NCBI GenBank assembly: GCA_015061915.1
Contig: SUVR01000002.1
Location: forward strand, 60,670-124,669
Reading direction: 5' to 3'
Source: Lentisphaerota bacterium
GTDB lineage: Bacteria; Verrucomicrobiota; Lentisphaeria; Victivallales; UBA1829
Length of the DNA stretch: 64,000 bases
Shown here: in pieces, positions 4,920 to 51,491 of the stretch
Layout of the letters: each line of letters opens with the position of its first letter
Numbering within the stretch: the stretch's first letter is position 1
The notes under the pieces: generated by a model
Database searches by the model: none
What the model was told of the DNA's origin: nothing
What the model saw: the letters and a program-made list of their open reading frames with translations, nothing else
Position numbers and translations under genes: made by a program

Positions 4920-6590
4920 ATGGATATTATGAAAGAGTTTCAGGCACGGAAGTTCGGTATGTTCATCCATTGGGGCGCATACGCCGTTCTGGGTGGACGT
5001 TACAAAGGGGAAGTGATGACGGAGATCGGGGAATGGGCGCAGTCCTACTTCCGGATCCCCAATGAGGAATACGCACAGATTGCCGCCACCTTCAACCCGG
5101 AAAAGTTCGATGCAGATGAATGGATGCGCAAAGCTGCCGCCGCCGGGATCAAATATATTGTCTTCACATCCAAGCACCATGACGGCTTCTGTATGTATGA
5201 CACGGCATATTCGGATTACAGCATTGTGAAGCATACGAAGTTCGGGCGCGACCCGCTGAAAGAACTGCAGCACGCCTGCGAAAAATACGGTATCAAGCTG
5301 GGGATCTACTACTCCCAGTATCTGGACTGGCACGAAGAACACGGAGGCGATCCCGGCGATTCCCATACAAAAAATGTGGCAGGGATGAGCTGGGGAAACG
5401 ACTGGGATTTTCCCCATACCGATCAGAAAGATTTTGAGATCTTCTTCCGTAACAAAGTCGTTCCGCAAGTCACGGAGCTGCTGACCAATTACGGCACGAT
5501 CTGGGAGTTCTGGTTCGATACCCCCATCGCCCAGGAGGCAAAATACAGCCGGGAACTGCGGGATCTGGTCAAACGCCTTCAGCCCCAATGCCTTATCAAC
5601 AGCCGGATCGGTCACGGTTGTCAGGACTTCATCGGGCTCGGCGACAACTGGATGCGTCACGGGAAGATGGATCTGGTGATCGAAGCCGCCGGAACCCTCA
5701 ACCGGACCTGGGGATTCAAGTTTGATGACCACGATTGGCTCAAGCCGGAACAGGTCATCAACACGCTGGTTTCTCTCACCGAAAATAATGCAAATTACCT
5801 GATGAATGTGGGACCGATGCCGGATGGTACGTTCACCCCGGAAACAGACCATATTCTCCAACAGATCGCCAACTGGATCGAAGACAAAAAAGATGCGATC
5901 CACGGTTCAGAACCATCCCCCTTCCCCCAAATCCTGCCGGACGCTTACTCCACTGTCAAAGGCAACCGGCTGAACTTGTTTCTCCGCAATGAGATGGAAC
6001 GTATGCTGCTTGCCGGGATCAACACAAAGATCTCTGCAGCAAGTGTTCCATTCCGGCAGGATGATTGCGGCAATGTGACGCTGGATCTGAAAGGCGTCTC
6101 CGGCTTTCTGCCGCTGGTCTCGCTGGATTTTGACGGCAAACCGGAGATCAGTCAGACCCTCACTGTGCAGAACGGTTCCATGCACCTTTTTATGGACTCC
6201 GGGATCTATGTGCCGGACACCCCGCCGTATGTCCTGTATGACGGCACCGCCGGCGACTGGAAAAAGCCGGAAGGAGCCATCCGCTGGGAAGTGGAAATTC
6301 CTGCCGCCGGGACTTTTGATGTGCTTCTCAAAGTCCAGACCGGTTATCTGGGACCGTGGAGCGGCGACCGGGTCATGGCGCTGGCTTTGGATGAAACACA
6401 GGAAGTCTCCGCCGACCTGAACAACGGCGAAGAAACGCCGCATCCGTACTGTACGATCCGGACCGTAAAGCTGGGCACGTTTCACATTGCAGAACCGGGC
6501 AGAAAGCTTTTGACGCTCCGTACTCTTTCCATCGGGGATGATGCAGCTGCAAACCTGCGGATAGCCTCGCTGATCCTGATCCGGCAGTAA
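4920..6590 (+). CDS. alpha-L-fucosidase (GH29)
   Basis: GH29 hallmarks FGMFIHWGAYAVLGG and HHDGFCMYDT are present. The ATG at 4920 is preceded by AAAGGAG. No signal peptide. Confidence 0.8.
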   Translation: MDIMKEFQARKFGMFIHWGAYAVLGGRYKGEVMTEIGEWAQSYFRIPNEEYAQIAATFNPEKFDADEWMRKAAAAGIKYIVFTSKHHDGFCMYDTAYSDYSIVKHTKFGRDPLKELQHACEKYGIKLGIYYSQYLDWHEEHGGDPGDSHTKNVAGMSWGNDWDFPHTDQKDFEIFFRNKVVPQVTELLTNYGTIWEFWFDTPIAQEAKYSRELRDLVKRLQPQCLINSRIGHGCQDFIGLGDNWMRHGKMDLVIEAAGTLNRTWGFKFDDHDWLKPEQVINTLVSLTENNANYLMNVGPMPDGTFTPETDHILQQIANWIEDKKDAIHGSEPSPFPQILPDAYSTVKGNRLNLFLRNEMERMLLAGINTKISAASVPFRQDDCGNVTLDLKGVSGFLPLVSLDFDGKPEISQTLTVQNGSMHLFMDSGIYVPDTPPYVLYDGTAGDWKKPEGAIRWEVEIPAAGTFDVLLKVQTGYLGPWSGDRVMALALDETQEVSADLNNGEETPHPYCTIRTVKLGTFHIAEPGRKLLTLRTLSIGDDAAANLRIASLILIRQ

Positions 6591-9633: not shown

Positions 9634-10275
9634 TCAGTCAAACGAAACCGATTCCAGAAATCGCTCACCGAAAGCGTTAAGTTTATCGACTGCACTGCCC
9701 TTGCGTAACAGAAAATAATTCATATCAAACAGTTTTCCCGGATCATTCGGCATAAAAAACATATAGCCGCAGATCATCCATTCATCCCCTTTCGGACTTT
9801 TTCCGGTCAGACGGTATTCCACTGCAGGAATATCATCAAGGATCGTTGCAAAATTGATTGCAAACGATTCTGCATCCGGCGTATTGCGATATTTTCCCCG
9901 GCAGAAACCGGTCAGTGCAGACTGGTTACGCTCATTCGGCAGCAGCGCAGGGGGGATCACAGTTGACGATGCCATGGCATTCAGAACGCCCCCTTCCCAT
10001 ACCAGAGGATCAATACGCCAATCCGCATAATTTTTTGTATTCACCTGCACATAAACACGCAGCGGGTAAAGTCCGGAACGGGAGATCGTAAAACCATTGT
10101 AATGAACCGCAGAACGATTGGAAAGATCCAGATAATAGTTGCCACGCACATCGGCAATCAGCTCCTTTTGTGGTACTTCCGTGCCGGCTTCCGGAATCGT
10201 ATAGGCAGTTGAAAAACAACCTGTCAAAGTAAACATCAAAAAAGAGGAAAGAAAAAAGAAAGTCCCGGTTTTCAT
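9634..10275 (-). CDS. hypothetical lipoprotein
   Basis: The internal ATG at 10275 gives MKTGTFFFLSSFLMFTLTGC, a signal peptide with lipobox L-T-G-C. The longer track ORF (to 10371) adds an implausible N-terminus. No family recognised. Confidence 0.5.
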   Translation of the reverse strand: MKTGTFFFLSSFLMFTLTGCFSTAYTIPEAGTEVPQKELIADVRGNYYLDLSNRSAVHYNGFTISRSGLYPLRVYVQVNTKNYADWRIDPLVWEGGVLNAMASSTVIPPALLPNERNQSALTGFCRGKYRNTPDAESFAINFATILDDIPAVEYRLTGKSPKGDEWMICGYMFFMPNDPGKLFDMNYFLLRKGSAVDKLNAFGERFLESVSFD

Positions 10276-10375: not shown

Positions 10376-10507
10376 GCGGGACGTCAGACTACCGGAGCAA
10401 GGGGATCCTTGCTCCGGTGCTTTTTCTCCGGTGCGGCGGCAACTGCCGCACCGGAAAAAAAGCGGGCAGCGCAGGTTGCACCTGCGCTGCCCGGTCTGAC
10501 GTCCCGC
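10376..10507. repeat. closed three-hairpin palindromic intergenic element (copy 1), contains terminators
   Basis: Perfect 13-bp outer IR: 10376-10388 GCGGGACGTCAGA with 10495-10507 TCTGACGTCCCGC. It encloses three hairpins at 10391-10418, 10428-10454 and 10463-10493, separated by T5 and A7 tracts. The third hairpin plus the T-run on the minus strand is the terminator of the FrhB-like gene. Confidence 0.85.
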
Positions 10508-10520
10508 GTCAATCGGCGGA

Positions 10521-11753
10521 TCAGAAGTATTCTCTCAGGGGCATACCGCGGCGTTTACGCGCCTCGATCACCGGTCCGTTGCAGACCGGCTTACCCACAT
10601 TATGGATCTCGCAGAGGAATGCTTCGGCGTCTTCCGGGGTATCCTTCCAAAGCTTGACAGCCTTACCTTCGATAGCGGCATCAACGAACTGCTGACCGAT
10701 CTCACTGCGGACCACCACGGCGGAAACACCGTTCAGTGCAGCCTCAATACGGGGATCTGCTTTCTTCTGTTCGTCGGTATATTCATAGAGGAAGGAGGGA
10801 TGCAGCACCGGGTGATGCCAGGTATCGCCCACCACGATATCGCCGCAGCTGGCAACTTTTTCCAGACAGTAGCGACATTCTTCCGGCGTGAACTTGGCAA
10901 GCTGTCCCAGCAGGTTGTTCACGAACGGTGCAACGGCATCTTCGCCATTCTTCAGCTGCACCTTGAAGTCGCCGGGGAACGGGCGGGCGCGATAGGTCAC
11001 TTTACCAACATCTTCCAGTTTTGTTTTCAGACATTCGGTAATGAGCCATTCCGTACCGTGACGGGACCAGTGAGCGCCGCAGATATTACTGAGGACCAGC
11101 TTGATACGGCGTCCGAATTCTTCAAATTCGTTTCCCATCATCAATTTGCGGATCGCAATGGTATGGCAGGGAGTGGAAGTGATCGCCAGTTTTGTCAAAC
11201 CCTTGTCCAGCGCTTCCCGGAGACCGAGGAGCTGGGGATGGGGCTGATATTTGCTGCCGGCACCGGCAAGGACCTGTTCACGGGTCGTTGCGACAAATGC
11301 TTTTGCTTCGTAGGGGGTAGCGGGATCGAAGCCGGCGATCACGGCGCCATCGATCATCTTGTTTTCCAGAGCAAAGATCAGGAGTGCGGAGATAAAACCG
11401 CCGCTGACTGCTGCATTGTGGACTTCTTCATCCAGCGCATAGCCGGTATAGACATTGCGCCAGATCCCGGTGATGTCTTCTTTCGTACCTTTTTTTGCCG
11501 CTCTGCCGAAGAACTTTGTCTGGATCTCGGTCAGGGGAACTTTGTGTGCGGGGCAGACATTATGGCAGCGTTCGCAGTGTTCGTCGATACACTTGCCCAC
11601 CAGTTCCGGGTTGCGCCCCCAGGAATATTTTTTCAGTTCAATGGCATGACTCGGACACACCAGCTCGCAAGCACCACATTCCACACAGAGACCACTGTTG
11701 ATGCAGTTCTTCTTCAAGAGATCGAAACCTTCCTGCGACATTTTTTCCTCCAT
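10521..11753 (-). CDS. coenzyme F420 hydrogenase/dehydrogenase beta-subunit-like (FrhB family) iron-sulfur protein
   Basis: N-terminal 2x[4Fe-4S] ferredoxin motifs (CVECGACELVCP, CERCHNVCP) are followed by an FrhB/FdhB-like segment (AVSGGFISALLIFALENKMIDGAVIAG). Confidence 0.7.
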   Translation of the reverse strand: MEEKMSQEGFDLLKKNCINSGLCVECGACELVCPSHAIELKKYSWGRNPELVGKCIDEHCERCHNVCPAHKVPLTEIQTKFFGRAAKKGTKEDITGIWRNVYTGYALDEEVHNAAVSGGFISALLIFALENKMIDGAVIAGFDPATPYEAKAFVATTREQVLAGAGSKYQPHPQLLGLREALDKGLTKLAITSTPCHTIAIRKLMMGNEFEEFGRRIKLVLSNICGAHWSRHGTEWLITECLKTKLEDVGKVTYRARPFPGDFKVQLKNGEDAVAPFVNNLLGQLAKFTPEECRYCLEKVASCGDIVVGDTWHHPVLHPSFLYEYTDEQKKADPRIEAALNGVSAVVVRSEIGQQFVDAAIEGKAVKLWKDTPEDAEAFLCEIHNVGKPVCNGPVIEARKRRGMPLREYF

Positions 11754-11843
11754 CCGTTGGTTGATTTTTCAGGGTTTCTATGCTATATTACCACAGCTTT
11801 TAAACTTTTGCAATAGGATAAACGTGTCATTGCAAGGATATGT

Positions 11844-12722
11844 ATGGCAAACTTGAAAAAACAATGGATCTGTGAGCATTATTACAACCCGGCTCAACTG
11901 AATCTACGGGATGCGGATCACCTGTTTGGTATCCCCCGGCTCTGCGGTTATGAATGGAACCATATTTCATCCGGTTTCGCCATTGATTGTTCCAAACGGG
12001 GCGCCCGTCAGCGGGCATTGTTCAAGTATACCATCAGCGGCGCCGGAGAACTCACAGTGAATGGAAAAACAAGCCGGATAGAAGCAGGAACAGCATTTCT
12101 TTTAGCCGGTCAGCTGAACGAAAATTCCTGCAGCTACCGGATCGCACCGGGTGCGGATCACTGGGAGTTTCTCTTTCTCAGTTTTGATAAACCGGGCGCC
12201 ATTTCCATTGCAAAATCCATACTCCGTGAGAATGGGGGAAACATCTTTCACCCGGAACACGCACTGGGCGATGCCTGGCACCTGTTTGAAATCTTCAAAA
12301 CAGGAGAAATACAGGATAAATATGCGGTTTCCAGCTTGGGCTATGATTTTTTTATGCACCTTGCCGGAGATGCCGCAACAGGAGGAAATGATCTGCTTCA
12401 CCGGGTAGAAGCATACTGTTTTCAACATCTGGGCGAGCAGGTCACCGTGGAAGATCTGGCAAACTATTGCGGATACAGCCGCTGGCATTTTGCCAAGGCG
12501 TTCCACCAGATCGCAGGAATGCCGCCAAGCAAATTCATTATGGAACAGAAACTCACCAGCGCACTGCACATTTTACAGCACGAAGCGTTGACGGTCAAGG
12601 AAATTGCCGGACGGTGCGGTTTTGATGATCCCGGGCACTTCGGACGCCGTTTCAAACAGCGTTTCGGCGTCACCCCTGCCAACTTTGAACAAATTACCGG
12701 ACATGAAAGGATAAAACACTGA
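11844..12722 (+). CDS. AraC-family transcriptional regulator
   Basis: C-terminal double HTH (SRWHFAKAFHQIAGMPPSKF...VKEIAGRCGFDDPGHFGRRFKQRFGVTPANF) with a cupin-like N-terminal domain. Divergent from the FrhB-like gene. Confidence 0.85.
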   Translation: MANLKKQWICEHYYNPAQLNLRDADHLFGIPRLCGYEWNHISSGFAIDCSKRGARQRALFKYTISGAGELTVNGKTSRIEAGTAFLLAGQLNENSCSYRIAPGADHWEFLFLSFDKPGAISIAKSILRENGGNIFHPEHALGDAWHLFEIFKTGEIQDKYAVSSLGYDFFMHLAGDAATGGNDLLHRVEAYCFQHLGEQVTVEDLANYCGYSRWHFAKAFHQIAGMPPSKFIMEQKLTSALHILQHEALTVKEIAGRCGFDDPGHFGRRFKQRFGVTPANFEQITGHERIKH

Positions 12723-12723
12723 T

Positions 12724-13149
12724 ATGGACAACAACTTTTACAATCAACTGAGAGAATTTTTGAACACAAAAGATCACTTCTGCAAAGAAAACGGGATGCA
12801 GATCCTTTCCATCAGCGAAGGGTGCGCTGAAGCAGAAATGATCGTGACAGAACACCATCTGAACGGGATGCGATCCGTACAGGGCGGCGCCCTTTTTACC
12901 CTTGCCGATTTTGCGTGCGCCGCGGCGATCAATTCCTTCGGGATGGCAGCAGTCAGTATGTCCGCCAGTGTGTCTTTCATCCGACCGGGGATCAATATGA
13001 AACGCATGACCGCCGTTGCAAAGCTTGTCAACAAGGGCAAAACCACCGCTGTTCTGGATGTGGATGTCATCGGCGAAAACGGGAAGATCCTTCTTCATTC
13101 CATGATGACCGGACATCTTTCTGATAAACCGCTGAGCGATTTCTTCTGA
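12724..13149 (+). CDS. PaaI-family hotdog-fold thioesterase
   Basis: 141 aa with a motif typical of PaaI/4HBT thioesterases (NGMRSVQGGALFTLADFACAAAI). The start lies 2 nt after the AraC stop. Confidence 0.75.
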   Translation: MDNNFYNQLREFLNTKDHFCKENGMQILSISEGCAEAEMIVTEHHLNGMRSVQGGALFTLADFACAAAINSFGMAAVSMSASVSFIRPGINMKRMTAVAKLVNKGKTTAVLDVDVIGENGKILLHSMMTGHLSDKPLSDFF

Positions 13150-13176
13150 TCAACAGACTTCCCCGCAGGAACATAA

Positions 13177-13351
13177 GCCCCGCAACGGGGATGCCGCCGC
13201 TTTTGTTTTTTGTGCGCCACAGAGCGCTCAAAAAACAAAAAAACGCCCTGCATTAAAAAAGCGCACCTCCACTGGTGCGCTTTTTTAATGCAGGGCGGGC
13301 GCCGGTCGCGCTTTCAGCGCGAGCGGCTGCGGCATCCCCGTCTTGTGGGGC
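13177..13351. repeat. closed three-hairpin palindromic intergenic element (copy 2), contains bidirectional terminator
   Basis: Imperfect outer stem 13177-13200 with 13323-13351 (12-bp perfect core CGGGGATGCCGC/GCGGCATCCCCG). It encloses hairpins at 13201-13240, 13244-13297 and 13306-13322. The 13244-13297 hairpin has a perfect 24-bp stem whose inner part is A6-GCGCACC...GGTGCGC-T6. Confidence 0.85.
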
Positions 13352-14398
13352 TTACTGTTCCGGACTGACACCGGCACCGAAAGAATCGATGTTCTGCAGG
13401 TACACGCCGGTACCTCTGGCAACCGCCAGAAGGGGGTCTTCCGCCACAAAGCAGTTCAGATTCATTTCCTCGGCAATGAGTTTATCCAGTCCCTTCAGCA
13501 GTGCACCACCGCCGGCAAGGAAAATCCCGTGATCACTCAAGTCGCCGCAGAGTTCCGGCGGACAGCGTTCCAATGTTGTCCGGACAGCCTCCACAATGCT
13601 TGTGACCGGTTCCAGGAGCCAACTGCGCACTTCCCGTGAAGTGATCTTGACCACTTTCGGCAGACCGGAAACAAGGTCGCGTCCTTTGATTTCCATTTCC
13701 GTTTCGCCGTTTTCGTCCGGGTAAACATTACCGATAGTGATCTTGATATCTTCCGCAGTCCGTTCACCGATCATCAGGTTGTAAACCCGCTTTACATTGC
13801 TGATGATCGCAAGGTCCATTTCATCACCGCCGACACGTACGCTGCGGCTGTCCACGATCCCGGCAAGGGAGATAATTGCCACTTCCGTAGTTCCGCCGCC
13901 GATATCCACGATCATGCTGCCGACGGGATCTTCAACAGGCAATCCGATCCCGATCGCAGCAGCCATCGGTTCTTCCAGCAGGATAACTTCACTCGCACCG
14001 GCATGAGTTGCCGTATCCTGCACGGCGCTTGTTTCCACTTCCGTGATCCCGGTGGGAACAGCGATCACGATACGGGGCTTTGCCAGGCGGCGGCGGGGAG
14101 AAACATATTTTTTTGCTTTTTCGATAAAGTAGCGGAGCATATGGCGGGTGATATTGATGTCAGCGATCACCCCGTCTTTCATCGGGCGGATCGCAGCAAT
14201 CGATCCCGGCGTTCTGCCGAGCATCATTTTTGCATCGACCCCGACAGCCAACACGCCGCCGGTGACCTTATTGATCGCCACAACGGAGGGTTCAGAAAGA
14301 ACAACACCTCTGTCCTTCACATATACCAGGCAGTTTGCCGTCCCGAGGTCGATCCCGATGTCGCTGGAAAAAAATCTTGCAAGCTTTTGATGTAACAT
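13352..14398 (-). CDS. mreB: rod shape-determining protein MreB
   Basis: 348 aa. Actin-like ATPase motifs DIGIDLGTANCLVYV and DIGGGTTEVAIISL, with a typical MreB C-terminus. Confidence 0.95.
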   Translation of the reverse strand: MLHQKLARFFSSDIGIDLGTANCLVYVKDRGVVLSEPSVVAINKVTGGVLAVGVDAKMMLGRTPGSIAAIRPMKDGVIADINITRHMLRYFIEKAKKYVSPRRRLAKPRIVIAVPTGITEVETSAVQDTATHAGASEVILLEEPMAAAIGIGLPVEDPVGSMIVDIGGGTTEVAIISLAGIVDSRSVRVGGDEMDLAIISNVKRVYNLMIGERTAEDIKITIGNVYPDENGETEMEIKGRDLVSGLPKVVKITSREVRSWLLEPVTSIVEAVRTTLERCPPELCGDLSDHGIFLAGGGALLKGLDKLIAEEMNLNCFVAEDPLLAVARGTGVYLQNIDSFGAGVSPEQ

Positions 14399-18049: not shown

Positions 18050-18157
18050 ATGGGCAGACAGTACAACAAGTACGAAAAAAGAGCACGCCGTAAACACTAC
18101 CTTCAGCGCGTGAAAGAAAGAATCAAAGAAGCGATCAAGAATGCAAAAAAGAAATAA
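18050..18157 (+). CDS. small highly basic protein (35 aa), hypothetical
   Basis: The ATG at 18050 is preceded by ACAGGAG with 8-nt spacing. Product: MGRQYNKYEKRARRKHYLQRVKERIKEAIKNAKKK. An AT-rich promoter-like region lies upstream. The longer track ORF (start 17966) lacks an RBS. Confidence 0.4.
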   Translation: MGRQYNKYEKRARRKHYLQRVKERIKEAIKNAKKK

Positions 18158-18297
18158 TTGATCTTTTCACAAGCTTCCGGTTGCCGGCAAACGGTAACCG
18201 GCGGCGGTTGTTGTTTGTATGACCGCCGGAACGGGGCGGTTCGGAAGCGGATCGCCCCTTTACTCTTTAAAACAGGACATCATTCAAGGAGCCTGCT

Positions 18298-40679: not shown

Positions 40680-41609
40680 ATGAAAATCGCAGCAGCAACC
40701 GACTACATCGGCAGCACCGGCTGTCCGGAACGCCCCCTCCGTCTCCTCGCTGAAGCAGGATTCACCCATCTTCACTGGTGCCATCAGTGGTGTACCGATT
40801 TTCTCTACAGCCAGCATGAAATCAATGCATACAAGAAAATGCTCAAAAATTTCGGTTTGACCCTGCTGGACATTCACGGCAGTCAGGGGCAGGAGAAATG
40901 CTGGTACTCCGAACTGGAATATCAGCGCAAAGCGGGCGTGGAACTGGTCATCAACCGCATCGAGATGATGACCGAACTGGAAGCCGAAGAAGGCGGCGCT
41001 CTTATGATGCACTTCCCCGTGTTCCATGCGTGGGATAAAGATAACGCCGAAGTTTTGGCGGCAACCCGAAGGAAACTGGATATCTTCAAGCGCACACTGG
41101 ATGATCTTCTGCCGGTCCTCGATATGCACGGAAGAAAGATCGCGCTCGAAAATATGTGGGGCGACAACTGGGATGCCATGGATGAAATTCTTGCCGAATA
41201 TCCGGCACAGTACATCGGGATCTGCTACGACTCCGGTCACGCAAACAGCAAATCCGTCGGCGGCAAGCCCTTCGATATGGGCTACTGCCAAATGGACCGT
41301 CTGGAAAAGCAGAAAGACCGTCTGGAAGCGTTGCATCTGCACGATAACAACGGCGACGGCGACCAGCATCAGCCCCCGTTCTACGGCAATGTGGACTGGG
41401 AACGGCTGGCAAAGATCATCGCCACCAGTAAATCCTACACCCGTCCTGTCAGTTTTGAAATGACCATCAGCAATACGCCGTTCCTGGATAAAGAGCGTCA
41501 GGAAAAAGGTGAACCGCAGACCGATAAAGCCGTTCTCGCATTCCTCAAGGATGCTCACGAACGGTGCGAAAAATTCGGCAGAATGGTCGAAGCGGCGGAG
41601 GCAAAATGA
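40680..41609 (+). CDS. sugar phosphate isomerase/epimerase (xylose isomerase-like TIM barrel)
   Basis: 309 aa. Typical metal-ligand context (IALENMWG, YDSGHAN, LHLHDNNGDGDQHQPP). Confidence 0.7.
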   Translation: MKIAAATDYIGSTGCPERPLRLLAEAGFTHLHWCHQWCTDFLYSQHEINAYKKMLKNFGLTLLDIHGSQGQEKCWYSELEYQRKAGVELVINRIEMMTELEAEEGGALMMHFPVFHAWDKDNAEVLAATRRKLDIFKRTLDDLLPVLDMHGRKIALENMWGDNWDAMDEILAEYPAQYIGICYDSGHANSKSVGGKPFDMGYCQMDRLEKQKDRLEALHLHDNNGDGDQHQPPFYGNVDWERLAKIIATSKSYTRPVSFEMTISNTPFLDKERQEKGEPQTDKAVLAFLKDAHERCEKFGRMVEAAEAK

Positions 41610-43804
41610 ACCGGGTCAGCAACTCCTGGAAACTGGAAGGCTCCACCGTCCTCACGGACAACGGGACCTTCCTGATGGATGGCGCGGGCTCTGCCGTTAC
41701 CACATTGAAACTGGATCAGCCCCAAGCTATGCCCGTCCGGATCAGCTGCGAAAGCCGCGCAGTCGATGCCATCGGAAACAATGCTTACGAATACTCCGTT
41801 CTGGCGAAAGTCGTCTTTACCGACGGAACCACCAACCGTCTGGACTGGACGCCCTTCAATGACGGAACGCTGTTCTATGCGGACTACGCTCCCTTTCTCA
41901 AGGGCAGTCACGACTGGCAGAAACGCAGTTTTCTCCTGATCTACGAAAAACCGATCCGGGATGTGCAGCTGGAAGTGCTGTTCACCCGTCATACCGGCAG
42001 CGCCGAGTTCCGGGATCTGACCGTGGAAGACTTTGCAAAGGATCCGGCGGTTCCGCGCTTCGATACCTTCACCATCGCCGGGGACCTGCCGCAGGGAGCT
42101 TTCCTCCGGGATTGCCGGACCGGCAGTTTCGCAGTGGATGGCGTCCGTATGGAACTGAAGGAGGAAAACGGTACGATCCACGCCCATCTGGAGCTGGGAG
42201 ATCAGGCGGATCGCTGTTTCACATTCTACTGGACGAAAGAGATTGCCGCCGATGCCGTCTCTTTCCTGCCCGCAATGGATGAGGAAACAGAGACTGCAAA
42301 CACGCCCAAAGACTATTTTCAGGTCTGCACCTGGCGGGTCGGGGCAAATGGTCTCGCCTCCAAAGCACCGTTCGCCGCCGTCAGCACGGGCGATGCAGTG
42401 GGGTTCGTTCCCCGGTGTCCGGTCTTCGGACGGGTGGGATACAACTCCATTTTCAAGCGTCTGTATGTGGCGTTCGATGTAGCACTGACCGCCGAACGCC
42501 CGTATGCCGATCTGACTTTTGTTTCTTATCGTTTTGAGCCGGAACACGGCTACCGCAGCGCTCTCTGCACTTATTACGGTCTGTTCCCCGAATTTTACAA
42601 GACGCGGATCCGGGAACAGGGGCTGTGGATGCCGTTCGCCAGTATCAAAAATCTGCCTGATCCGGAAGATTTTCACTTCAAGTTCAAAGAAGGGCACGGG
42701 GTCGGCGACTACGAGTGGGAACTGGAACACGGGATCCATACCTTCGCCTACACCGAACCCATGACCCAATGGATCGATATGCCCGCAGATGTGCCGCGGA
42801 CATACGAAAACGCCAAAATGTGGCGCCGGGAAAAGATCAGTTCCGAACAGGCAAAGGTCATTGATGATTCCGTTATGACCGACGAGACCGGCAAAGAGAT
42901 TATGCTCGCCACCGAACTGCCCTGGTGTCACGGCGTAGTGTGGAGCGTCAACTCCATGCCCGGATACGGCGATATGGAATGGAAACAAAAGACGATTCCC
43001 GCAGGTTTTCACGAATATATCGACAGCGCAGAAGGTTATGTGACGGCAGATATTTCACACCGCCGCGACCACTTTTCACGCTGTCCGCTGGCTCTGACCT
43101 TCAGCGCCGATTCCTTTGTGCCCGGTATCTGGAAGGGATATATCGCTTACGAATACGCCCGGGAACCCCATGACCGGCTCCTGCCCCAGGGCAGATATGT
43201 CATGGCGAACGGCACACCCGGCAGTATGTGGTTCCTGCCCGCAATGCTGGATGTTGCCGGCACCGAAACGGACTGGAACATCGGCGGCAGCTGGAGCCCC
43301 ATGACCGTACAGGAACTGCGGTACCGTCGCGCTGCTTGCGCCGATAAGCCGTACTGCTTCCTCATGAACTCCGACTTTTCAAAATTCACCCACGAAATGG
43401 TGGAAAAATATATGAAACGGTCCCTCGTGTTCGGCATGTTCCCCGGCTTCTTCAGCGCAAACGCCGCCAGCGGTCATTATTTCGCCAATCCCTCCCTCTA
43501 TGAACGGGACAGAGATCTGTTCAAACGGTATCTCCCCTTCATCCAGCAGGCAACCGCCGAAGGCTGGGAACCGGTGACATACGCCAAAGCCGACGATCCG
43601 GCGATCGCACTGGAACGGTACGGCACAAAGTATGTTACCGCCCTGAACGATTCCGGCGAAACAAGAACAGTCCGGCTGACATTCGATGATAAACTGGACG
43701 TCACCGGCTTTACCGATGTGCTGACCGGAAAAACATACCGCAAGGATGAACCCATTACGCTGGATGGCGAAGATGTGGCAATGCTGGAGCTGATCAAGGC
43801 GTAA
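41606..43804 (+). CDS. large cytoplasmic hypothetical protein (732 aa), possibly carbohydrate-active
   Basis: The ATG at 41606 overlaps the upstream stop (ATGA). There is an N-terminal beta-sandwich-like region and no signal peptide. No family recognised. The functional hint comes only from context (TIM-barrel isomerase upstream, cupin convergent). Confidence 0.55.
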   Translation: MNRVSNSWKLEGSTVLTDNGTFLMDGAGSAVTTLKLDQPQAMPVRISCESRAVDAIGNNAYEYSVLAKVVFTDGTTNRLDWTPFNDGTLFYADYAPFLKGSHDWQKRSFLLIYEKPIRDVQLEVLFTRHTGSAEFRDLTVEDFAKDPAVPRFDTFTIAGDLPQGAFLRDCRTGSFAVDGVRMELKEENGTIHAHLELGDQADRCFTFYWTKEIAADAVSFLPAMDEETETANTPKDYFQVCTWRVGANGLASKAPFAAVSTGDAVGFVPRCPVFGRVGYNSIFKRLYVAFDVALTAERPYADLTFVSYRFEPEHGYRSALCTYYGLFPEFYKTRIREQGLWMPFASIKNLPDPEDFHFKFKEGHGVGDYEWELEHGIHTFAYTEPMTQWIDMPADVPRTYENAKMWRREKISSEQAKVIDDSVMTDETGKEIMLATELPWCHGVVWSVNSMPGYGDMEWKQKTIPAGFHEYIDSAEGYVTADISHRRDHFSRCPLALTFSADSFVPGIWKGYIAYEYAREPHDRLLPQGRYVMANGTPGSMWFLPAMLDVAGTETDWNIGGSWSPMTVQELRYRRAACADKPYCFLMNSDFSKFTHEMVEKYMKRSLVFGMFPGFFSANAASGHYFANPSLYERDRDLFKRYLPFIQQATAEGWEPVTYAKADDPAIALERYGTKYVTALNDSGETRTVRLTFDDKLDVTGFTDVLTGKTYRKDEPITLDGEDVAMLELIKA

Positions 43805-43821
43805 GATGTACGCGAAAAATA

Positions 43822-43949
43822 GCGGAACGGCGCAGTCGCCGGAGCAACGCTCCGGCATACCGCCCACAAAAAAAAGCGCAGGCAAAAACGCCTGCGCTTT
43901 TTCTGTGGAGCGGCGGCAGCCCCTGCGGGGCTGGACTGCGCCGTTCCGC
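43822..43949. repeat. closed three-hairpin palindromic intergenic element (copy 3), contains bidirectional terminator
   Basis: Perfect 16-bp outer IR 43822-43837 GCGGAACGGCGCAGTC with 43934-43949 GACTGCGCCGTTCCGC. It encloses hairpins at 43838-43856, 43860-43913 (core A8-GCGCAGGC...GCCTGCGC-T5) and 43917-43933. Confidence 0.85.
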
Positions 43950-43967: not shown

Positions 43968-44318
43968 TCAATAGCAGGGAATCATAGCAAGCACGACCAG
44001 TGTCTCATCGCCGAGAGCGGCGATGCTGTGACCTTCGCCGCCGCGGGTCACGATACTGTCGCCTGTTTCCAGAATGGACTTCACACCGTTATCGTCCACT
44101 TCTGCTCTGCCGGACACCACAAAAAAGATTTCTTCCTCGTTCTCGTGAACATGATAACCGATCGATGTCCCCGGTTCCAGGATCAGCTTGGAATACATAC
44201 GCACATTGCTGTTCAAGCCATCTCCCTTCTTCCAGATATGTTCCATTTTCACGGTGCCGTTTCCGCCGCGCATAGTGGTGCGTTCTTCCTTTACAAATTC
44301 ATCTTTTCTGCGAATCAT
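43968..44318 (-). CDS. cupin-domain protein
   Basis: 116 aa with cupin_2 motifs GYHVHENEEEIFFVVSG and GEGHSIAALG. AAGGAG RBS. Confidence 0.75.
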   Translation of the reverse strand: MIRRKDEFVKEERTTMRGGNGTVKMEHIWKKGDGLNSNVRMYSKLILEPGTSIGYHVHENEEEIFFVVSGRAEVDDNGVKSILETGDSIVTRGGEGHSIAALGDETLVVLAMIPCY

Positions 44319-44345: not shown

Positions 44346-45572
44346 TTATTTCTTTTTCTCTTCCGGCTTCTTTCCGTCTGACTTTTTTTCTTCCGGCTTG
44401 ATCAGCTCCCGGAGTGCAGATGAAAGGGGACCAGTTTTTGTTGCTTTCTCTTCCGGCTTCTTTCCGTCTGCCTTTTTCTCTTCCGGCTTCTTTTCCTCTG
44501 CCTTTTTCTCTTCCGGCTTAATCAGCTCCCGGAGTGCAGGAGAAAGAGGACCTGCCTTGTCCACTACTGTGATTTCCGGAATCACCAGCGGGGAGATGAA
44601 GACAGCTGAAATTCCTTCAACACCCGGCTTCAGGACACCATAGCGAAGGGGAACATCCTTATAAGTTCCGGCGCTGGTGATATTTGACAAGTCAGCATAA
44701 ATCAACAAATCCTCCGGCTTCAGATTTTCCACCGTATTTTTTTCGCCGGTAACGGTTGCTTTCACGGTCGCAGGCTCGATCTTCTCCACAGCCAGACTGC
44801 CGGATTGTTCCGGGGGAAGCATCAGAGAAACTTTCATACCCCGGATTTCCGTTCTTGCAGTTTTTTTCAACTTTACGGATACGGTGACCTGATCCGTGGA
44901 AAAGGAAAGTCCATCGATCGGATGCAAACGTACGCTGGTCGTAAAATCGGCAACATGATCTTTCAACGGGATCGGCATCGTATTGACCGTCATGCCTTTC
45001 CGGAACAGATGTTCAGGACCGACCGCCTTGATTTTCTTCTCATCGGGAAAAGTGATGGAGCGGACCGTATATCCTTTGGGCAGATCTTCTGCGGCATATT
45101 CTGCCTTTAACGGCAACTCTCTTGTCACGATCTTATCGATCGTAAACGTGTATTCGGCGGGGCTGACTTCCAGCACCTGAAGCAATGCGCCCTTCGGATG
45201 TCGGCAACGGACATCTTCCGCCTTCAACGTAACATACTGGCGACCGTTTTCATTCCGGTTCTGATAAGCCTGCTCTCCGATCACATAGTCCAGCGAAAAA
45301 TCTTCCGGCTTCAAGTCAAAAAGTTTTGTTTTCGGACCGCGTACGGTCAATGAAACCTGCTGCAGGTTTCTGGTTTTCCATACAAAACCGCTTTCCAAAG
45401 TCAACGCCGGCTGAACATTGTGGATCACAAAAACTTCATCCTCATGCTTGCGTTTATCCGAATATACCGTTGCAGTAACAAGCATCGCAAAGATCAGGGC
45501 GAAAAACTTACGCCAGAAATCGTGCCGGATAATATGGGGAACCCAGCGGAATTTACTTTTTTCTTCACTCAT
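44346..45572 (-). CDS. cdaR: YbbR-domain protein, CdaA regulator (CdaR-like) with repetitive K/E-rich tail
   Basis: N-terminal TM helix and repeated YbbR-like beta domains. ATGA overlap with the upstream cdaA. The C-terminal 68 aa are duplicated GPLS(P/S)ALRELIKPEEKK modules with PEEKK repeats. Confidence 0.7.
   Translation of the reverse strand: MSEEKSKFRWVPHIIRHDFWRKFFALIFAMLVTATVYSDKRKHEDEVFVIHNVQPALTLESGFVWKTRNLQQVSLTVRGPKTKLFDLKPEDFSLDYVIGEQAYQNRNENGRQYVTLKAEDVRCRHPKGALLQVLEVSPAEYTFTIDKIVTRELPLKAEYAAEDLPKGYTVRSITFPDEKKIKAVGPEHLFRKGMTVNTMPIPLKDHVADFTTSVRLHPIDGLSFSTDQVTVSVKLKKTARTEIRGMKVSLMLPPEQSGSLAVEKIEPATVKATVTGEKNTVENLKPEDLLIYADLSNITSAGTYKDVPLRYGVLKPGVEGISAVFISPLVIPEITVVDKAGPLSPALRELIKPEEKKAEEKKPEEKKADGKKPEEKATKTGPLSSALRELIKPEEKKSDGKKPEEKKK
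44349..44552 (-). repeat. in-frame tandem repeat encoding the K/E-rich tail of CdaR-like protein
   Basis: Plus-strand motif CTCTTCCGGCTTC... recurs at about 30-bp intervals. The longer unit ...TTCCGGCTT(G/A)ATCAGCTCCCGGAGTGCAG... occurs twice (about 44392-44431 and 44512-44552). Confidence 0.8.
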
Positions 45573-47307: not shown

Positions 47308-50029
47308 CAGCGTCTTCTCCGCTGCCTTCCGCTTCGACTTCGTAGATCTCTTCGCCGTTTTCATCAAAGTGCTGTGCGGCGTAGTCCACACCGGAACCGG
47401 CCTTCACAACAAACTTTTCTTCTTCGGTCTCTTCCGGCTTGTTTTCCACTTCCACCTGAACAATGCAGGAGACGCTGGTAATGCGGTCGTTCTTGCGTAG
47501 GTTCATGATGCGGACGCCCTTGGAATTTCTGCCCACCTTGCGGATCTCGCTGACGGGGATACGGGTGATCTGACCGCGTTCCGTGGTGATCAGCAGTTCA
47601 TCGTCTTCCTTCACGCGCAGGGCAGCCACAACGGTTTCACCTTCATCCAGGTTCATGTTCTTGACGCCCTTGGCGCCGCGGCGGGTCAGGCGGTACTTAT
47701 CCACATAGCTGCGCTTACCCATACCGCCGCTGGTCACGACCAGCAGCTGGGGCTTGCCGTTATCTTCTTCCGTTTCCGCATCATCATCGGTATCGGCGGC
47801 GTCTTCGTTCACATCATCTGCCACATCGTCCGCCACATCATCGGCGGGCAGTTCTGCATCGTCATCAATGGGTGCCGCGTTGAGGGCAGCTTCCGCATTT
47901 TCGCCCGGCACAACTTCCATACTGACGATATAGTCGTCTTCGATTTTGAAGCGGATCCCGGTAACACCGCGGGCAGCTCTGCCCATACTGCGGATGTCAG
48001 ATTCCACGAAGCGGCAAGCCATACCCTTGGCGGTGGAGAGGATCACTTCATCCGTACCACCGGCAAGTTCTGCACCGATCAGGTCGTCGCCTTCCTCGAT
48101 GATGAGAGCGCGGAGTCCCACATTACGCAGATTCTTGAACTGGGAAAGGGCAGTCTTCTTCACAACGCCGTTGCGGGTCGCCATGACAATGGACATATTT
48201 TCCATATCGAACATGGATTTGTTCAGGGTCAGCATGGCCTTGATCTGTTCGCCCGGTTCGATCTTGATCAGGTTCACGATCGCTTTGCCGTTGCCGGTAC
48301 GGACACCTTCCGGGATGTCATACACGTTCAGCCAGTACATGAAGCCCTTGTCCGTAAAGAAGAAGATGATGTCGTGGCTGTCCGCATTGAACAGGTGCGC
48401 CACATGGTCCTCATCCTTCGTCTTCATACCCACAATGCCCACGCCGCCGCGATGCTGAGTCTGGTAGGTATCTGCGGGCACGCGCTTGATGTAACCGGTG
48501 TCGGAGACCGTGATCACGCAGGAATGACGGGGGATCAGGTCGGCAATATCCAGGTCGCCGTCATCGTACGTGATTTCCGTGCGGCGCTTGTCGGCGTAAC
48601 GTTCCTTCACATAGAGCAGTTCTTCCTTGATGAGCTGGATGCGCATTTCACGGCTGGCAAGCAGTTCTTTCAGGTAGGTGATCTGCTTCATGACTTCATC
48701 GTAGTCCGCCTGCAGGTCTTCGATGGCAAGACCGGTCAGCTGATGCAGGCGCATATCCAGAATAGCGCCGACCTGGATCCGGGTCAGACCGAAACGATCG
48801 ATCAACGCCGTTGCCGCCGCTTCCTTCGTGCGGGATTCACGGATGATCTTCACCACTTCGTCAATATTATTGACCGCAATGAGCAAGCCTTCGAGGATAT
48901 GAGCGCGTGCTTCCGCTTTCTTCAGTTCAAACTGGGCGCGGCGGGTCACCACTTCAAAACGGTGATCCAGGAACGCCTGAAGGATCTGGGGCAGATTCAT
49001 CACACGGGGACGGTTGTGGTCAACGACCAGCATATTGCAGCCCATAACAGATTCCATTTGAGTGTGGGTGTAAAGCTGGTTCAGGATCACACTGCCCATA
49101 AAGCCGCGCTTGATGTCGATCACAACACGGATCCCCTTTTCTTTGGAGGATTCGTCACGAAGTCCGGAAATACCGTTGATCTTCTTTTCGCCGACCAGTT
49201 CCGCGATCTTTTTGACCATCATTTCCTTATTGACCGCATAGGGGATCTCCGTCACAATGATCTGTTCCTGATTTCCCTTTTCCACGATCTCCGCCTTGGC
49301 ACGAATCTTGATCACACCGTGTCCCGTTTCATACAGGCTGCGGATCGGATCGATCCCGCAGATGATGCCGCCGGTGGGGAAGTCCGGACCGGGCAGACAG
49401 CTCATCAGTTCGCGGACAGTCGCCGTGGGATGTTCCAGCATATAAATCGTGGCATCAATGGTTTCGCCAAGATTGTGTGTGGGAATGCAGGTTGCCATCC
49501 CGACGCCGATCCCCACGCTGCCGTTGACCAGCAGGTTCGGGAACTTGGCAGGCAGGACTTCCGGTTCTGTGTTGGCTTCGTCGAAGGTCGGCATCATATT
49601 GACCGTATCCTTCTCAATGTCGTTGAGCAGTTCTTCCGTCAGACGCTCCATACGACATTCCGTATAACGGTAGGCAGCCGGGGGGTCACCGTCGATAGAA
49701 CCGAAGTTTCCCTGACCTTCCACCAGCGGCTCACGCATGGAGAAGTCCTGCGCCATACGAACGAGCGTATCGTACACAGAAGCATCACCGTGGGGGTGGT
49801 AGTTACCCAGCACTTCCCCGACCACCTTCGCACACTTGACCGTGGCATGAGATTTGGTCAGACCAAGCTGGCGCATGGCATAAAGGATACGACGGTTACA
49901 GGGCTTCATACCGTCACGGACATCCGGGATGGCACGGCCGATATTCACACTCAGAGAATACTGCAGGTACGCAGTATGCATGATATCCTCGATGTTGACG
50001 AGAAAATCATTGGGGCTGTTTTCGCTCAT
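47291..50029 (-). CDS. gyrA: DNA gyrase subunit A
   Basis: 912 aa. Active-site region [10 protein letters not shown] and QRDR-like [25 protein letters not shown], with C-terminal beta-pinwheel repeats. An acidic insertion and an acidic tail are present. Confidence 0.97.
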
Positions 50030-50171: not shown

Positions 50172-50309
50172 GAGGCGCAGCGCAGCCCTTTTTTTTGCTG
50201 CGGCGACAGCGCCGCAGCAAAAAAACGCCTCCGCTTGCAGAACAGATTGCTGTTCTGCAAGCGGAGGCGGCACCGGAGCCAAGCTCCGGTGCGGGCTGCG
50301 CCGCGCCTC
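50172..50309. repeat. closed three-hairpin palindromic intergenic element (copy 4), contains dnaJ terminator
   Basis: 17-bp outer IR (1 mismatch) 50172-50188 GAGGCGCAGCGCAGCCC with 50293-50309 GGGCTGCGCCGCGCCTC. It encloses T8-hairpin-A7 (50189-50225), a perfect 20-bp stem (50226-50269) and GCACCGGAGC-caa-GCTCCGGTGC (50270-50292). Confidence 0.85.
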
Positions 50310-50312
50310 TGT

Positions 50313-51491
50313 TTACAAGCCGAAAGCGGCAAAAAGCGCCACAAATTTATTCAGAAACTTCTTGAAGAAACCGGTCCCGACGGGATGAGCTTCGCTATCC
50401 TTTTTTTCATCAAAAGTTGCTTCGTACTGACGGAGCAAATCCTTCTGTTCCGGGGTCAGTTTTTTAGGTACTTCAATGGTAAAACGGAGGTAGTGGGTAC
50501 CAAAGCTTCCACGCCGTCTCAACGACGGCATACCTTTATTTGCAACCCGCTGAACATCACCGTTTTGTGTTCCAGAAGGAACCATAAATTTCATCGGTCC
50601 GTGAATGGTGGGGATATCGATTTCTCCCCCCAGTGCAGCAACGGTAAATTTGATCGGAACATCGCAATAAATATCATCGCCTTCCCGTTCAAAAAGTTCA
50701 TGATCGCGGACACTGATATCCACATAAAGATCGCCGTCTCTGCCGCCCCGGAGACCGGGTTCACCTTCACCTGCCACACGCAGTCTGGAACCGGTATCCA
50801 CACCGGCGGGAATATGCACTTCCACGGAGCGTTTCAAGCGTACATGACCGGTGGCATTACACTTCTTACAGGGCTTTTCCGGAACGGACCCGGCGCCGCC
50901 GCAATCCGGACATTCCTGCATCATCGTAAAGAATCCCTGAGAGATCCCCACCTGTCCGGTCCCTTTACAGCGTTTGCAGGGCACTCTGACACCGGATTCG
51001 CAACCGGTACCGTGGCACGCCTCGCAGGCGCCCTGACGTACAAATTCCAGCTTCTTTGTAACACCGTTCACGGCATCCATAAAATCGATTTCCAACGGGT
51101 AGCGCAGGTCGTTTCCTGCCATGGGGGCATTGGGATCGCGTCTTCTTCCGCCACCGCCGAAAAAGGACTCAAAACCGCCCATTCCGCCGCCACCGCCGAA
51201 GAACTGGTTGAAGATATCAAAGGGATCGCCGCTGAAACCGCCGCCTCCGCCGCGTCCGGCGCCGGAGAAGGCATCTTCGCCGTACTGGTCATACAACTTG
51301 CGCTTTTCCGGATTGGAAAGTACATCGTACGCCTGTGCGATCTTCTTGAACTTTTCTTCCGCTTCTTTGTTGCCCTGATTTTTGTCCGGGTGATACTTGA
51401 TGGCAAGTTTGCGGTATGCTTTCTTGATCGCGGTCTCGTCTGCATCCACCGGGATCTCAAGCAGATCGTAGTATGTGGTATCAACAGCCAT
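50313..51491 (-). CDS. dnaJ: molecular chaperone DnaJ
   Basis: J-domain [32 protein letters not shown], a G/F-rich region and four CxxCxGxG zinc-finger repeats. The start overlaps the htpG stop (TAATG). Confidence 0.95.

Follow-up and report, generated by a model that had tools for sequence, protein, structure and literature searches.

Closed three-hairpin elements at gene 3' ends in a gut Lentisphaerae lineage as candidate compound terminator modules

What kind of element is a palindromic intergenic segment that closes upon itself through a long outer stem, encloses three hairpins, and recurs as a layout at unrelated sequences? The question is raised by positions 10376-10507 (element c1) of a 64,000-nt stretch of Lentisphaerota DNA (GenBank assembly GCA_015061915.1, contig SUVR01000002.1, positions 60,670 to 124,669 of the forward strand; hereafter the window), an ordinary chromosomal region that carries mreB, dnaJ, gyrA, glycosidases and transporters. 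A first-pass annotation had reported the same layout at three further sites, 13177-13351 (c2), 43822-43949 (c3) and 50172-50309 (c4), and all three are present and belong to a type of structure that is strongly enriched in this lineage. Our leading reading, plausible but tentative, sees in them compound, self-closing intrinsic-terminator/insulator modules which a single gut Lentisphaerae lineage evolved in place at the 3' ends of its genes. The sources of the flanking proteins' homologues label these Lentisphaerae, Lentisphaeria or Victivallales, and an assembly artefact was rejected, as metagenome assemblies made independently (JGI, ENA and Logan) contain identical sequences.

Anatomy of the elements and frequency of the layout

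Structurally, c1 is closed by an outer inverted repeat of 14 bp (GCGGGACGTCAGAC at 10376-10389, pairing with 10494-10507), perfect as first described but one base pair longer than the 13 bp then given. Inside it lie H1 (10391-10418), with a 12-bp perfect stem (arms 10391-10402 and 10407-10418); H2 (10419-10463), with a 19-bp stem (10419-10437 with 10445-10463) that is 95% complementary with one mismatch; and H3 (10463-10493), with a 14-bp perfect stem (10463-10476 with 10480-10493) and a 3-nt loop. The annotated count of three GC-rich hairpins and the outline of H1 stand, whereas the H2 stem proved longer than described and that of H3 has 14 bp, not 13. The T5 and A7 tracts, which had been taken for separators between the hairpins, pair with each other and form the base of H2, so that the three hairpins abut with 0-2 unpaired nucleotides at the junction. 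Altogether 88-91% of the bases of c1 are paired, and the closed three-hairpin fold lies far beyond what shuffled sequences attain both as DNA (-74.7 kcal/mol versus -29.2 +/- 3.1; z = -14.7) and as minus-strand RNA (-118.2 kcal/mol versus -55.1 +/- 3.9; z = -16.1), with no shuffle as good in either case. In relatives, c1 is identical in L001 and differs by one base in L002.

The four window elements, together with a fifth in a sister species, are as follows.

10376-10507, no strand assigned: c1, between the stop of an FrhB-like gene and the start region of a 213-aa gene, both neighbours on the minus strand
13177-13351, no strand assigned: c2, between the convergent 4HBT thioesterase and mreB genes; outer arms 13177-13197 and 13329-13351; H1 13201-13240, T/A-rich; H2 13244-13297, a 24-bp perfect stem enclosing an A6-stem-T6 bidirectional terminator; H3 13301-13327
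43822-43949, no strand assigned: c3, between convergent genes; outer stem 43822-43837 with 43934-43949, 16 bp, perfect; H1 43838-43856; H2 43860-43913, an A8-stem-T5 bidirectional terminator; H3 43917-43933
50172-50309, no strand assigned: c4; outer stem 50172-50188 with 50293-50309, 17 bp with one mismatch; H1 50190-50225; H2 50226-50269, a 20-bp stem; H3 50270-50292
L084 5136-5285 (sister species): fifth element, between convergent genes; 24-bp outer stem, same layout

Across these elements the closing stems measure 14-24 bp and the hairpin stems 10-24 bp, unusually long and perfect, and the central hairpin is the longest branch in all five (45, 54, 54, 44 and 52 nt). The stems are almost purely Watson-Crick, with loops of 3-7 nt and G-U pairs nearly absent, and each reads as a perfect duplex from either strand; a strand bias of G-T mismatches, which might serve as an RNA signature, had only four mismatches to score. 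When the whole window was scanned for inverted repeats with perfect arms separated by 3-260 nt, three elements stood out with outer stems of 13-16 bp against a background of long-range perfect repeats of 9-12 bp, and the mismatched outer stem of c4 was seen as a 9-bp core only. Energetically, the intergenic regions of c1, c2 and c4 fold at -0.53 to -0.66 kcal/mol per nt and the c3 element at -0.78 to -0.82, compared with about -0.1 to -0.4 for ordinary spacers of the window.

To count such structures elsewhere we used a purpose-written detector (outer repeat score of at least 12; a minimum-free-energy fold closed by that repeat; two or more branches inside it; pairing of 75% of bases or more) in preference to a covariance model, which would hold almost no information because the copies lack a shared sequence and their stem lengths differ. 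The detector returned 5 matches in 80 kb of this lineage (the window and its close relatives; 6.3 per 100 kb), 4 in 249 kb of Lentisphaerae-like contigs (1.6 per 100 kb; metagenome loci encoding relatives, at 34-48% identity, of a 746-aa protein encoded next to c3), and 5 in 1.37 Mb from 80 unrelated bacterial loci (0.37 per 100 kb; obtained through an MreB search, with relatives of at most 68% identity among the matches listed). All five lineage matches have exactly three branches and 84-91% of their bases paired, whereas the five from unrelated bacteria are weaker, with paired fractions of 0.76-0.80 versus at least 0.84, and four of them are two-branched.

Two sets of related structures were also seen. 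Closed structures with 18-25-bp outer repeats lie at gene 3' ends in L105 (11782-11938 and 5954-6111) and L096 (12148-12236), at a GC content of 59-66%, with two or four branches and lower pairing; judged by these sequences, the closing of hairpin clusters may extend more widely in the phylum. In the window itself, three tandem, imperfect GC-rich hairpins at 18150-18297, following a 35-aa basic open reading frame and upstream of a hexapeptide acyltransferase gene, are not closed and may be an unclosed relative of the elements.

Relation to known elements and turnover between relatives

The elements are copies in architecture only, their primary sequences differing as the first-pass annotation had noted. 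Among the 16 stems of the four window elements, the longest k-mer common to different elements is 11-12 nt and largely A/T tract, the outer arms are wholly different from one element to the next, and blastn-short gave no cross-matches among the elements or in approximately 2 Mb of loci fetched from other assemblies, the search of the organism's own genome covering the 64-kb window. A CCGGAGC...GCTCCGG core is indeed common to three of the four, but it is only weakly above chance, some 7-mer being shared by three elements in 3.2% of arm shuffles; in the fetched loci the pattern CCGGAGC-N3-9-GCTCCGG occurs only in c3 and c4 orthologues, and the c1 hairpin, with a 12-nt gap, falls outside it. As a family signature this weakly non-random hairpin (P about 0.03) was rejected. 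Reading the flanks of the four window copies and of the L084 element revealed no direct repeats or target-site duplications. Rfam gave no match at the gathering score and, with E relaxed to 1, nothing beyond generic hairpin matches that scored far under the threshold, so the search for a catalogued family found none; ARAGORN predicted no tRNA or tmRNA genes, and BLAST of c1 against plasmids and phages returned nothing. The window proteins that were scanned included no transposase, integrase or HUH/Y1 protein, and neither did the Pfam calls of matching loci. The earlier idea of an intergenic repeat family therefore does not hold, each element being a unique sequence, most of them turning over between species, and none showing a sign of mobility.

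The nearest known kinds are hairpin-cluster, U-, V- and X-shaped, and long-stem terminators, with repetitive extragenic palindromes (REPs) and bacterial interspersed mosaic elements (BIMEs) close in position and proposed role. Hairpin clusters and long stems are among the known forms of terminators (PMC8355165; PMC3013805; PMC10325885). In the cluster and non-canonical types (WebGeSTer's U-, V- and X-shaped classes, the 'clusters of hairpins' that Gupta and Pal described in 2021, and long-stem forms), as in the present elements, several GC-rich hairpins are found no more than tens of nucleotides away from a stop codon; among these known clusters some have U-tracts, some abut (V-shaped), some serve convergent genes (X-shaped), and very long stems occur. 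None of these classes, though, has the long-range closing stem that turns the elements described here into a fully paired four-way junction, and whereas the present hairpins number three, reported terminator cluster sizes drop exponentially.

REPs, BIMEs and REPINs are likewise palindromes, GC-rich and extragenic, that are placed at the 3' ends of genes, often where two genes converge, and that cluster in alternating orientation, and the roles proposed for them in termination, mRNA stability and supercoiling resemble those considered here. REPs are characterised as high-copy families whose units, 20-40 nt long and near-identical, carry a GTAG or CGTC tag and are accompanied by a RAYT gene (PMC3733652; PMC2817692). 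Every hairpin of the present elements, by contrast, is unique, with no common terminal tetranucleotide and no RAYT gene among the proteins scanned, and a BIME from E. coli K-12 (50 kb tested with the same detector) folded as one long hairpin and not as a closed multibranch structure. The first-pass judgement that these are not REP/BIME, enterobacterial repetitive intergenic consensus (ERIC) or MITE (miniature inverted-repeat transposable element) sequences was thus borne out, with neither recurring sequence nor conserved ends nor target duplications, while its suggestion of recognition by a RAYT-like enzyme was not, there being neither a conserved tag nor a transposase in the proteins and Pfam calls already mentioned.

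Integron attC sites offer another likeness, as sequence-diverse, structure-defined imperfect palindromes directly 3' of genes, the longer ones with branched tips. In contrast to attC, the outer arms here (GCGGGACGTCAGAC, GCGGAACGGCGCAGTC, GAGGCGCAGCGCAGCCC and so on) lack the R''/R' core (RYYYAAC / GTTRRRY), there are no extrahelical bases, and the surroundings contain neither a cassette array nor, among the proteins scanned, an integrase, the neighbours being mreB, dnaJ, gyrA and an FrhB-like gene. Correia elements and other MITEs are similar in being intergenic, 100-200 bp long and bounded by pairing terminal inverted repeats, but MITE copies share conserved terminal repeats and have target duplications and weakly structured interiors, none of which holds for the present elements. 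MITE-like, long-repeat elements were found in control genomes (L007, L026, L096 and L105), and the control matches in L005 and L026 have MITE-like outer repeats of 36-37 bp. Readings as tRNA-like, retron, integron or MITE sequences were dropped, their defining features being missing.

Evolutionarily, the elements come and go over short distances. In L002, a strain about 98% identical to the window, the entire c2 spacer (13150-13350) has given way to 208 nt of unrelated sequence (L002 7049-7256), sharply bounded by both stop codons and with only the mreB T-tract still recognisable; the final 200 nt of the 4HBT gene are also more diverged there (94%). Downstream of an FrhB orthologue with 86% protein identity lie three or four tandem hairpins with no closure, and downstream of one with 79% identity a single terminator, while relatives at 70% and 68% identity had none of these structures in 42 kb. 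Between more distant relatives, then, elements get replaced, and on the sequences compared the layout appears young, lineage-specific and labile, yet constrained where it persists. Near a distant relative's FrhB orthologue, just downstream of it, we also observed about five tandem 12-nt units (CAAATCGTYTGA; L087 11290-11350).

Rearrangement edges and assembly breaks were found at the same places. Compared with window positions 10521-13149, the FrhB-(AraC)-4HBT block of L084 (5293-7920) is inverted relative to the S1-domain gene; in the window this block is flanked by c1 and c2, and in L084, where the FrhB homologue is longer (639 aa), the closed three-hairpin element stands at the other junction. 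The 732/746-aa gene upstream of c3 (window 41606-43804, plus strand, versus L115 10001-12217) is about 75% identical between the two (77% at the protein level, with 44% fourfold divergence), in a contig that over 31.6-41.6 kb matches the window at about 98.5% identity, and the divergence fades just before c3; from these sequences it looks like a hypervariable, seemingly imported allele with an edge at or near c3. Contigs of independent assemblies end at the hairpin regions, L003 at the centre of c2, L084 and L085 52 nt past the FrhB stop, L116 3 nt past the stop of the 746-aa gene, and L119 and L120 51 nt past the dnaJ stop, which fits a loss of coverage at strong hairpins or mixed population variants such as flipped loops. 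Elsewhere in the window, 2.5 copies of a 30-nt unit stand in tandem (95% match) at 44445-44519, within a YbbR-like gene on the minus strand.

Could the elements then be mobile, either as non-autonomous transposable sequences (MITE, REPIN or palindrome-associated transposable element, PATE) or as attC-like recombination sites recognised by their shape by a transposase or integrase? Such an origin would account for sequence-diverse but structurally similar units directly after genes, for the presence/absence polymorphism of c2, and for the breaking of independent assemblies at the elements. We nonetheless regard it as highly improbable, given the lack of shared sequence, conserved ends, duplicated targets and any GTTRRRY-type core in the comparisons above, the housekeeping neighbours, the protein and Pfam survey with no candidate enzyme, and the L002 spacer, which was exchanged for a different sequence of similar length with no clean excision.

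Predicted internal terminators and structure-preserving change

Every element starts 0-27 nt past a stop codon, in tandem and in convergent settings alike, which agrees with the original placement of all four window copies just 3' of genes.

c1: FrhB-like gene 10521-11753, minus strand, followed by the 213-aa gene 9634-10275, minus strand; tandem
c2: 4HBT thioesterase gene 12724-13149, plus strand, and mreB 13352-14398, minus strand; convergent
c3: 732/746-aa hypothetical protein gene ending at 43804, plus strand, and cupin gene 43968-44318, minus strand; convergent
c4: dnaJ with its stop at 50313, minus strand, followed by gyrA with its start at 50029, minus strand; tandem

At the motif level, all four window copies contain a canonical hairpin followed by a T-tract on the strand of the upstream gene.

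10456-10493, minus strand: c1 terminator of the FrhB-like gene, H3 with its 14-bp stem and then T7
10390-10426, plus strand: c1 terminator-like site, H1 and then T5

The latter site has no plus-strand gene upstream of it, as had been pointed out, both neighbours of c1 being on the minus strand. At c2 the predicted terminator on the minus strand consists of the 24-bp H2 followed by TTTTTTTGTTTTTT, giving a stem of 20 bp or more before a T7 tract, with the inner A6-stem-T6 unit inside H2; at c3 it is H2 itself, the bidirectional A8-stem-T5 unit; and at c4 the 20-bp H2 is followed by T7 on the minus strand, serving dnaJ. The first-pass proposal of a terminator or insulator role fits these motifs, and we infer that transcripts would end in vivo at the predicted sites. 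Because each internal terminator precedes the second closing arm, the four-way fold would require either RNA made by read-through or DNA that is single-stranded or extruded; the annotated fold in RNA of either strand or in a DNA cruciform is thereby narrowed to these cases and lost for normally terminated RNA.

Selection on the pairing itself is indicated by c3, which is retained in two diverged relatives, L115 and L117, and could thus be compared in three sequence variants; an exact look-up of the cupin gene added no further c3 variants, every match collapsing to one locus. Between the window and L117, fourfold-site divergence is 15.5% in the upstream 732/746-aa gene and 31% in the cupin gene, and within c3 only 7 of the 110 paired columns have changed compared with 9 of 19 unpaired ones (Fisher 3e-5), a paired-column rate below the fourfold-site rates of both flanking genes (P = 0.003 or less). 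Among the three variants, 3 of 55 pairs have changed on both sides, one of them an A-T to G-C replacement in the closing stem, so that the compensatory change proposed as a check is found in c3, the one element with enough variants for the comparison, together with the lower divergence of its paired columns.

Other changes are symmetric in a different manner. The H2 loop of c3, AAAAAC in the window, is GTTTTT in L115, its exact reverse complement and thus a one-step loop inversion. At c4, where the comparison covers one outer arm and H3 since the L119 and L120 contigs stop inside the element, H3 reads GCACCGGAGCCGG-gac-CCGGCTCCGGTGC in this related strain and GCACCGGAGC-ttg-GCTCCGGTGC in the window, 13 bp versus 10 bp, which implies symmetric stem growth. 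At c2, a 3-nt GCC insertion in L003 gives a 16-bp perfect outer stem, and the outer repeat takes in the mreB stop codon and the final codons before it (GGAACAGTAAGCCCC versus GGAACA-TAAGCCCC), which suggests from the sequence that the far arm was copied from the end of mreB. Template switching is a documented source of perfect stems, of multibase compensatory changes and of inverted spacers (PMC8794818; PMC8604942), and the symmetric changes are what template switching or arm-to-arm conversion would yield.

Such changes invite the explanation that the elements are a neutral by-product of a palindrome-prone lineage (for example, one with weak hairpin-nuclease or exonuclease surveillance) in which terminator hairpins are extended and the closing stem and side hairpins have no function. 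Loop inversion, symmetric stem growth, the arm copying the mreB stop codon, the rapid turnover between and within species and the uniqueness of every element in sequence would all be expected of it. We consider it very unlikely, however, since unbiased conversion leaves the substitution rate unlowered, whereas in c3 the divergence of paired columns is 2-5 times lower than that of fourfold sites and about 7 times lower than that of loops, and since the layout is very regular, with three branches and the central one longest in five of five elements.

What the closing stem may do

How, then, would a compound terminator of this kind work? In each element a long central hairpin carries A and T tracts that complement each other, two GC-rich hairpins of lesser length stand at its sides, and a stem of 14-24 bp closes the structure into a nearly fully paired four-way junction. 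A polymerase arriving from the upstream gene would halt at the internal hairpin and U-tract, leaving a transcript whose 3' end has one or two very stable hairpins as its cap, and polymerases that read through, or that arrive from the opposite side, would encounter the additional hairpins. Once the second arm is transcribed, the closing helix could form, often with a T-rich stretch behind it, as a fail-safe block that would insulate the neighbouring gene; this fail-safe or insulating role we infer from the layout. T-rich sequence does follow the closing helix in about half of the transcription directions, most clearly at c3 (minus strand TATTTTT, plus strand GTCGTCTTTT). Selection would hold the stems paired, while mutation templated by the opposite arm, through template switching during replication or arm-to-arm conversion, would alter both arms together and flip loops. 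A four-helix junction is the only multi-helix junction able to be fully paired and coaxially stacked, and this steric preference of full pairing for four helices alone could explain the constant number of three inner hairpins.

Several observations weigh against a reading as terminator and insulator. The L084 element (5136-5285) has no hairpin directly trailed by a T-tract, so the layout does not require a canonical terminator; the closing stem is unable to form in RNA that ends at an internal terminator, and ordinary termination therefore fails to explain its conservation; and the T-rich tracts past the closing stem are inconsistent, clear at c3 and not at c4. Moreover, the constant three inner hairpins amount to five cases, the closed forms of distant Lentisphaerae contigs having two or four branches, and the covariation comes from three variants of one element.

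Some of these points would be met by a role at the level of DNA, in which the near-perfect palindromes would form extruded cruciforms or cloverleaves where the DNA is supercoiled or single-stranded, and would serve either as sinks for supercoils or as places where gyrase, nucleoid or junction-binding proteins attach, as proposed for BIMEs, with the terminators incidental or secondary. The closing stem pairs equally on both strands and is conserved with compensatory change although absent from terminated RNA; near-pure Watson-Crick stems with short loops and flanking A/T tracts favour extrusion; c4 lies just upstream of gyrA; the elements stand at edges of rearrangement or recombination (the c2 replacement, the inverted FrhB-4HBT block and the divergent allele edge at c3); and the L084 element dispenses with T-tracts after its hairpins. 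Yet the protein partner and in vivo extrusion are both hypothetical, and strict placement at gene 3' ends with correctly oriented terminators in four of four window copies is what a role in transcription predicts, and we judge the DNA-level explanation unlikely.

From an RNA perspective, the element could instead be a functional four-way-junction RNA in a 3' untranslated or intergenic region, made by read-through and serving as an RNase III-type processing site, a stabiliser or a 3'-derived small RNA. The very strong RNA fold and the constrained, covarying pairs (three of them) are compatible with this, and at the tandem sites c1 and c4 read-through would put the fold between two cistrons. It is decidedly unlikely all the same, since strong internal terminators (14-24-bp stems and then T7) precede the second closing arm, Rfam gave no match even at a permissive threshold, the loci are unrelated in sequence and mostly not kept beyond close relatives, and stems with almost no G-U pairs are perfect duplexes on both strands.

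Beyond the terminator/insulator reading we can also conceive of a new extragenic class defined by topology alone, a doubtful proposition but one worth stating. In such a class selection would act on the fully paired four-way junction as such, made of a closing stem and three hairpins with the longest in the middle. A protein that binds junctions or cruciforms would recognise it, or it would serve gene ends as a supercoil or replication-transcription insulator, and it would originate and be renewed in place by palindrome-templated mutation and not by transposition, giving a REP/BIME- or attC-like role with no sequence family. The closed, sequence-independent layout and its maintenance would be unexpected to specialists, as terminators are usually seen as single hairpins and extragenic palindromes as repeat families spread by transposases.

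For the biology of this lineage, one fold at unrelated sequences with its pairing maintained suggests building in place, through selection and arm-templated mutation. The loop inversion and symmetric stem growth seen here are clean natural examples that bear on the origin of perfect stems, and in practical terms the elements break metagenome assemblies and mark recombination edges. If the closing stem has a role, be it in fail-safe termination, in insulation or as a DNA junction, these elements would represent a new way to separate adjacent genes in compact genomes.

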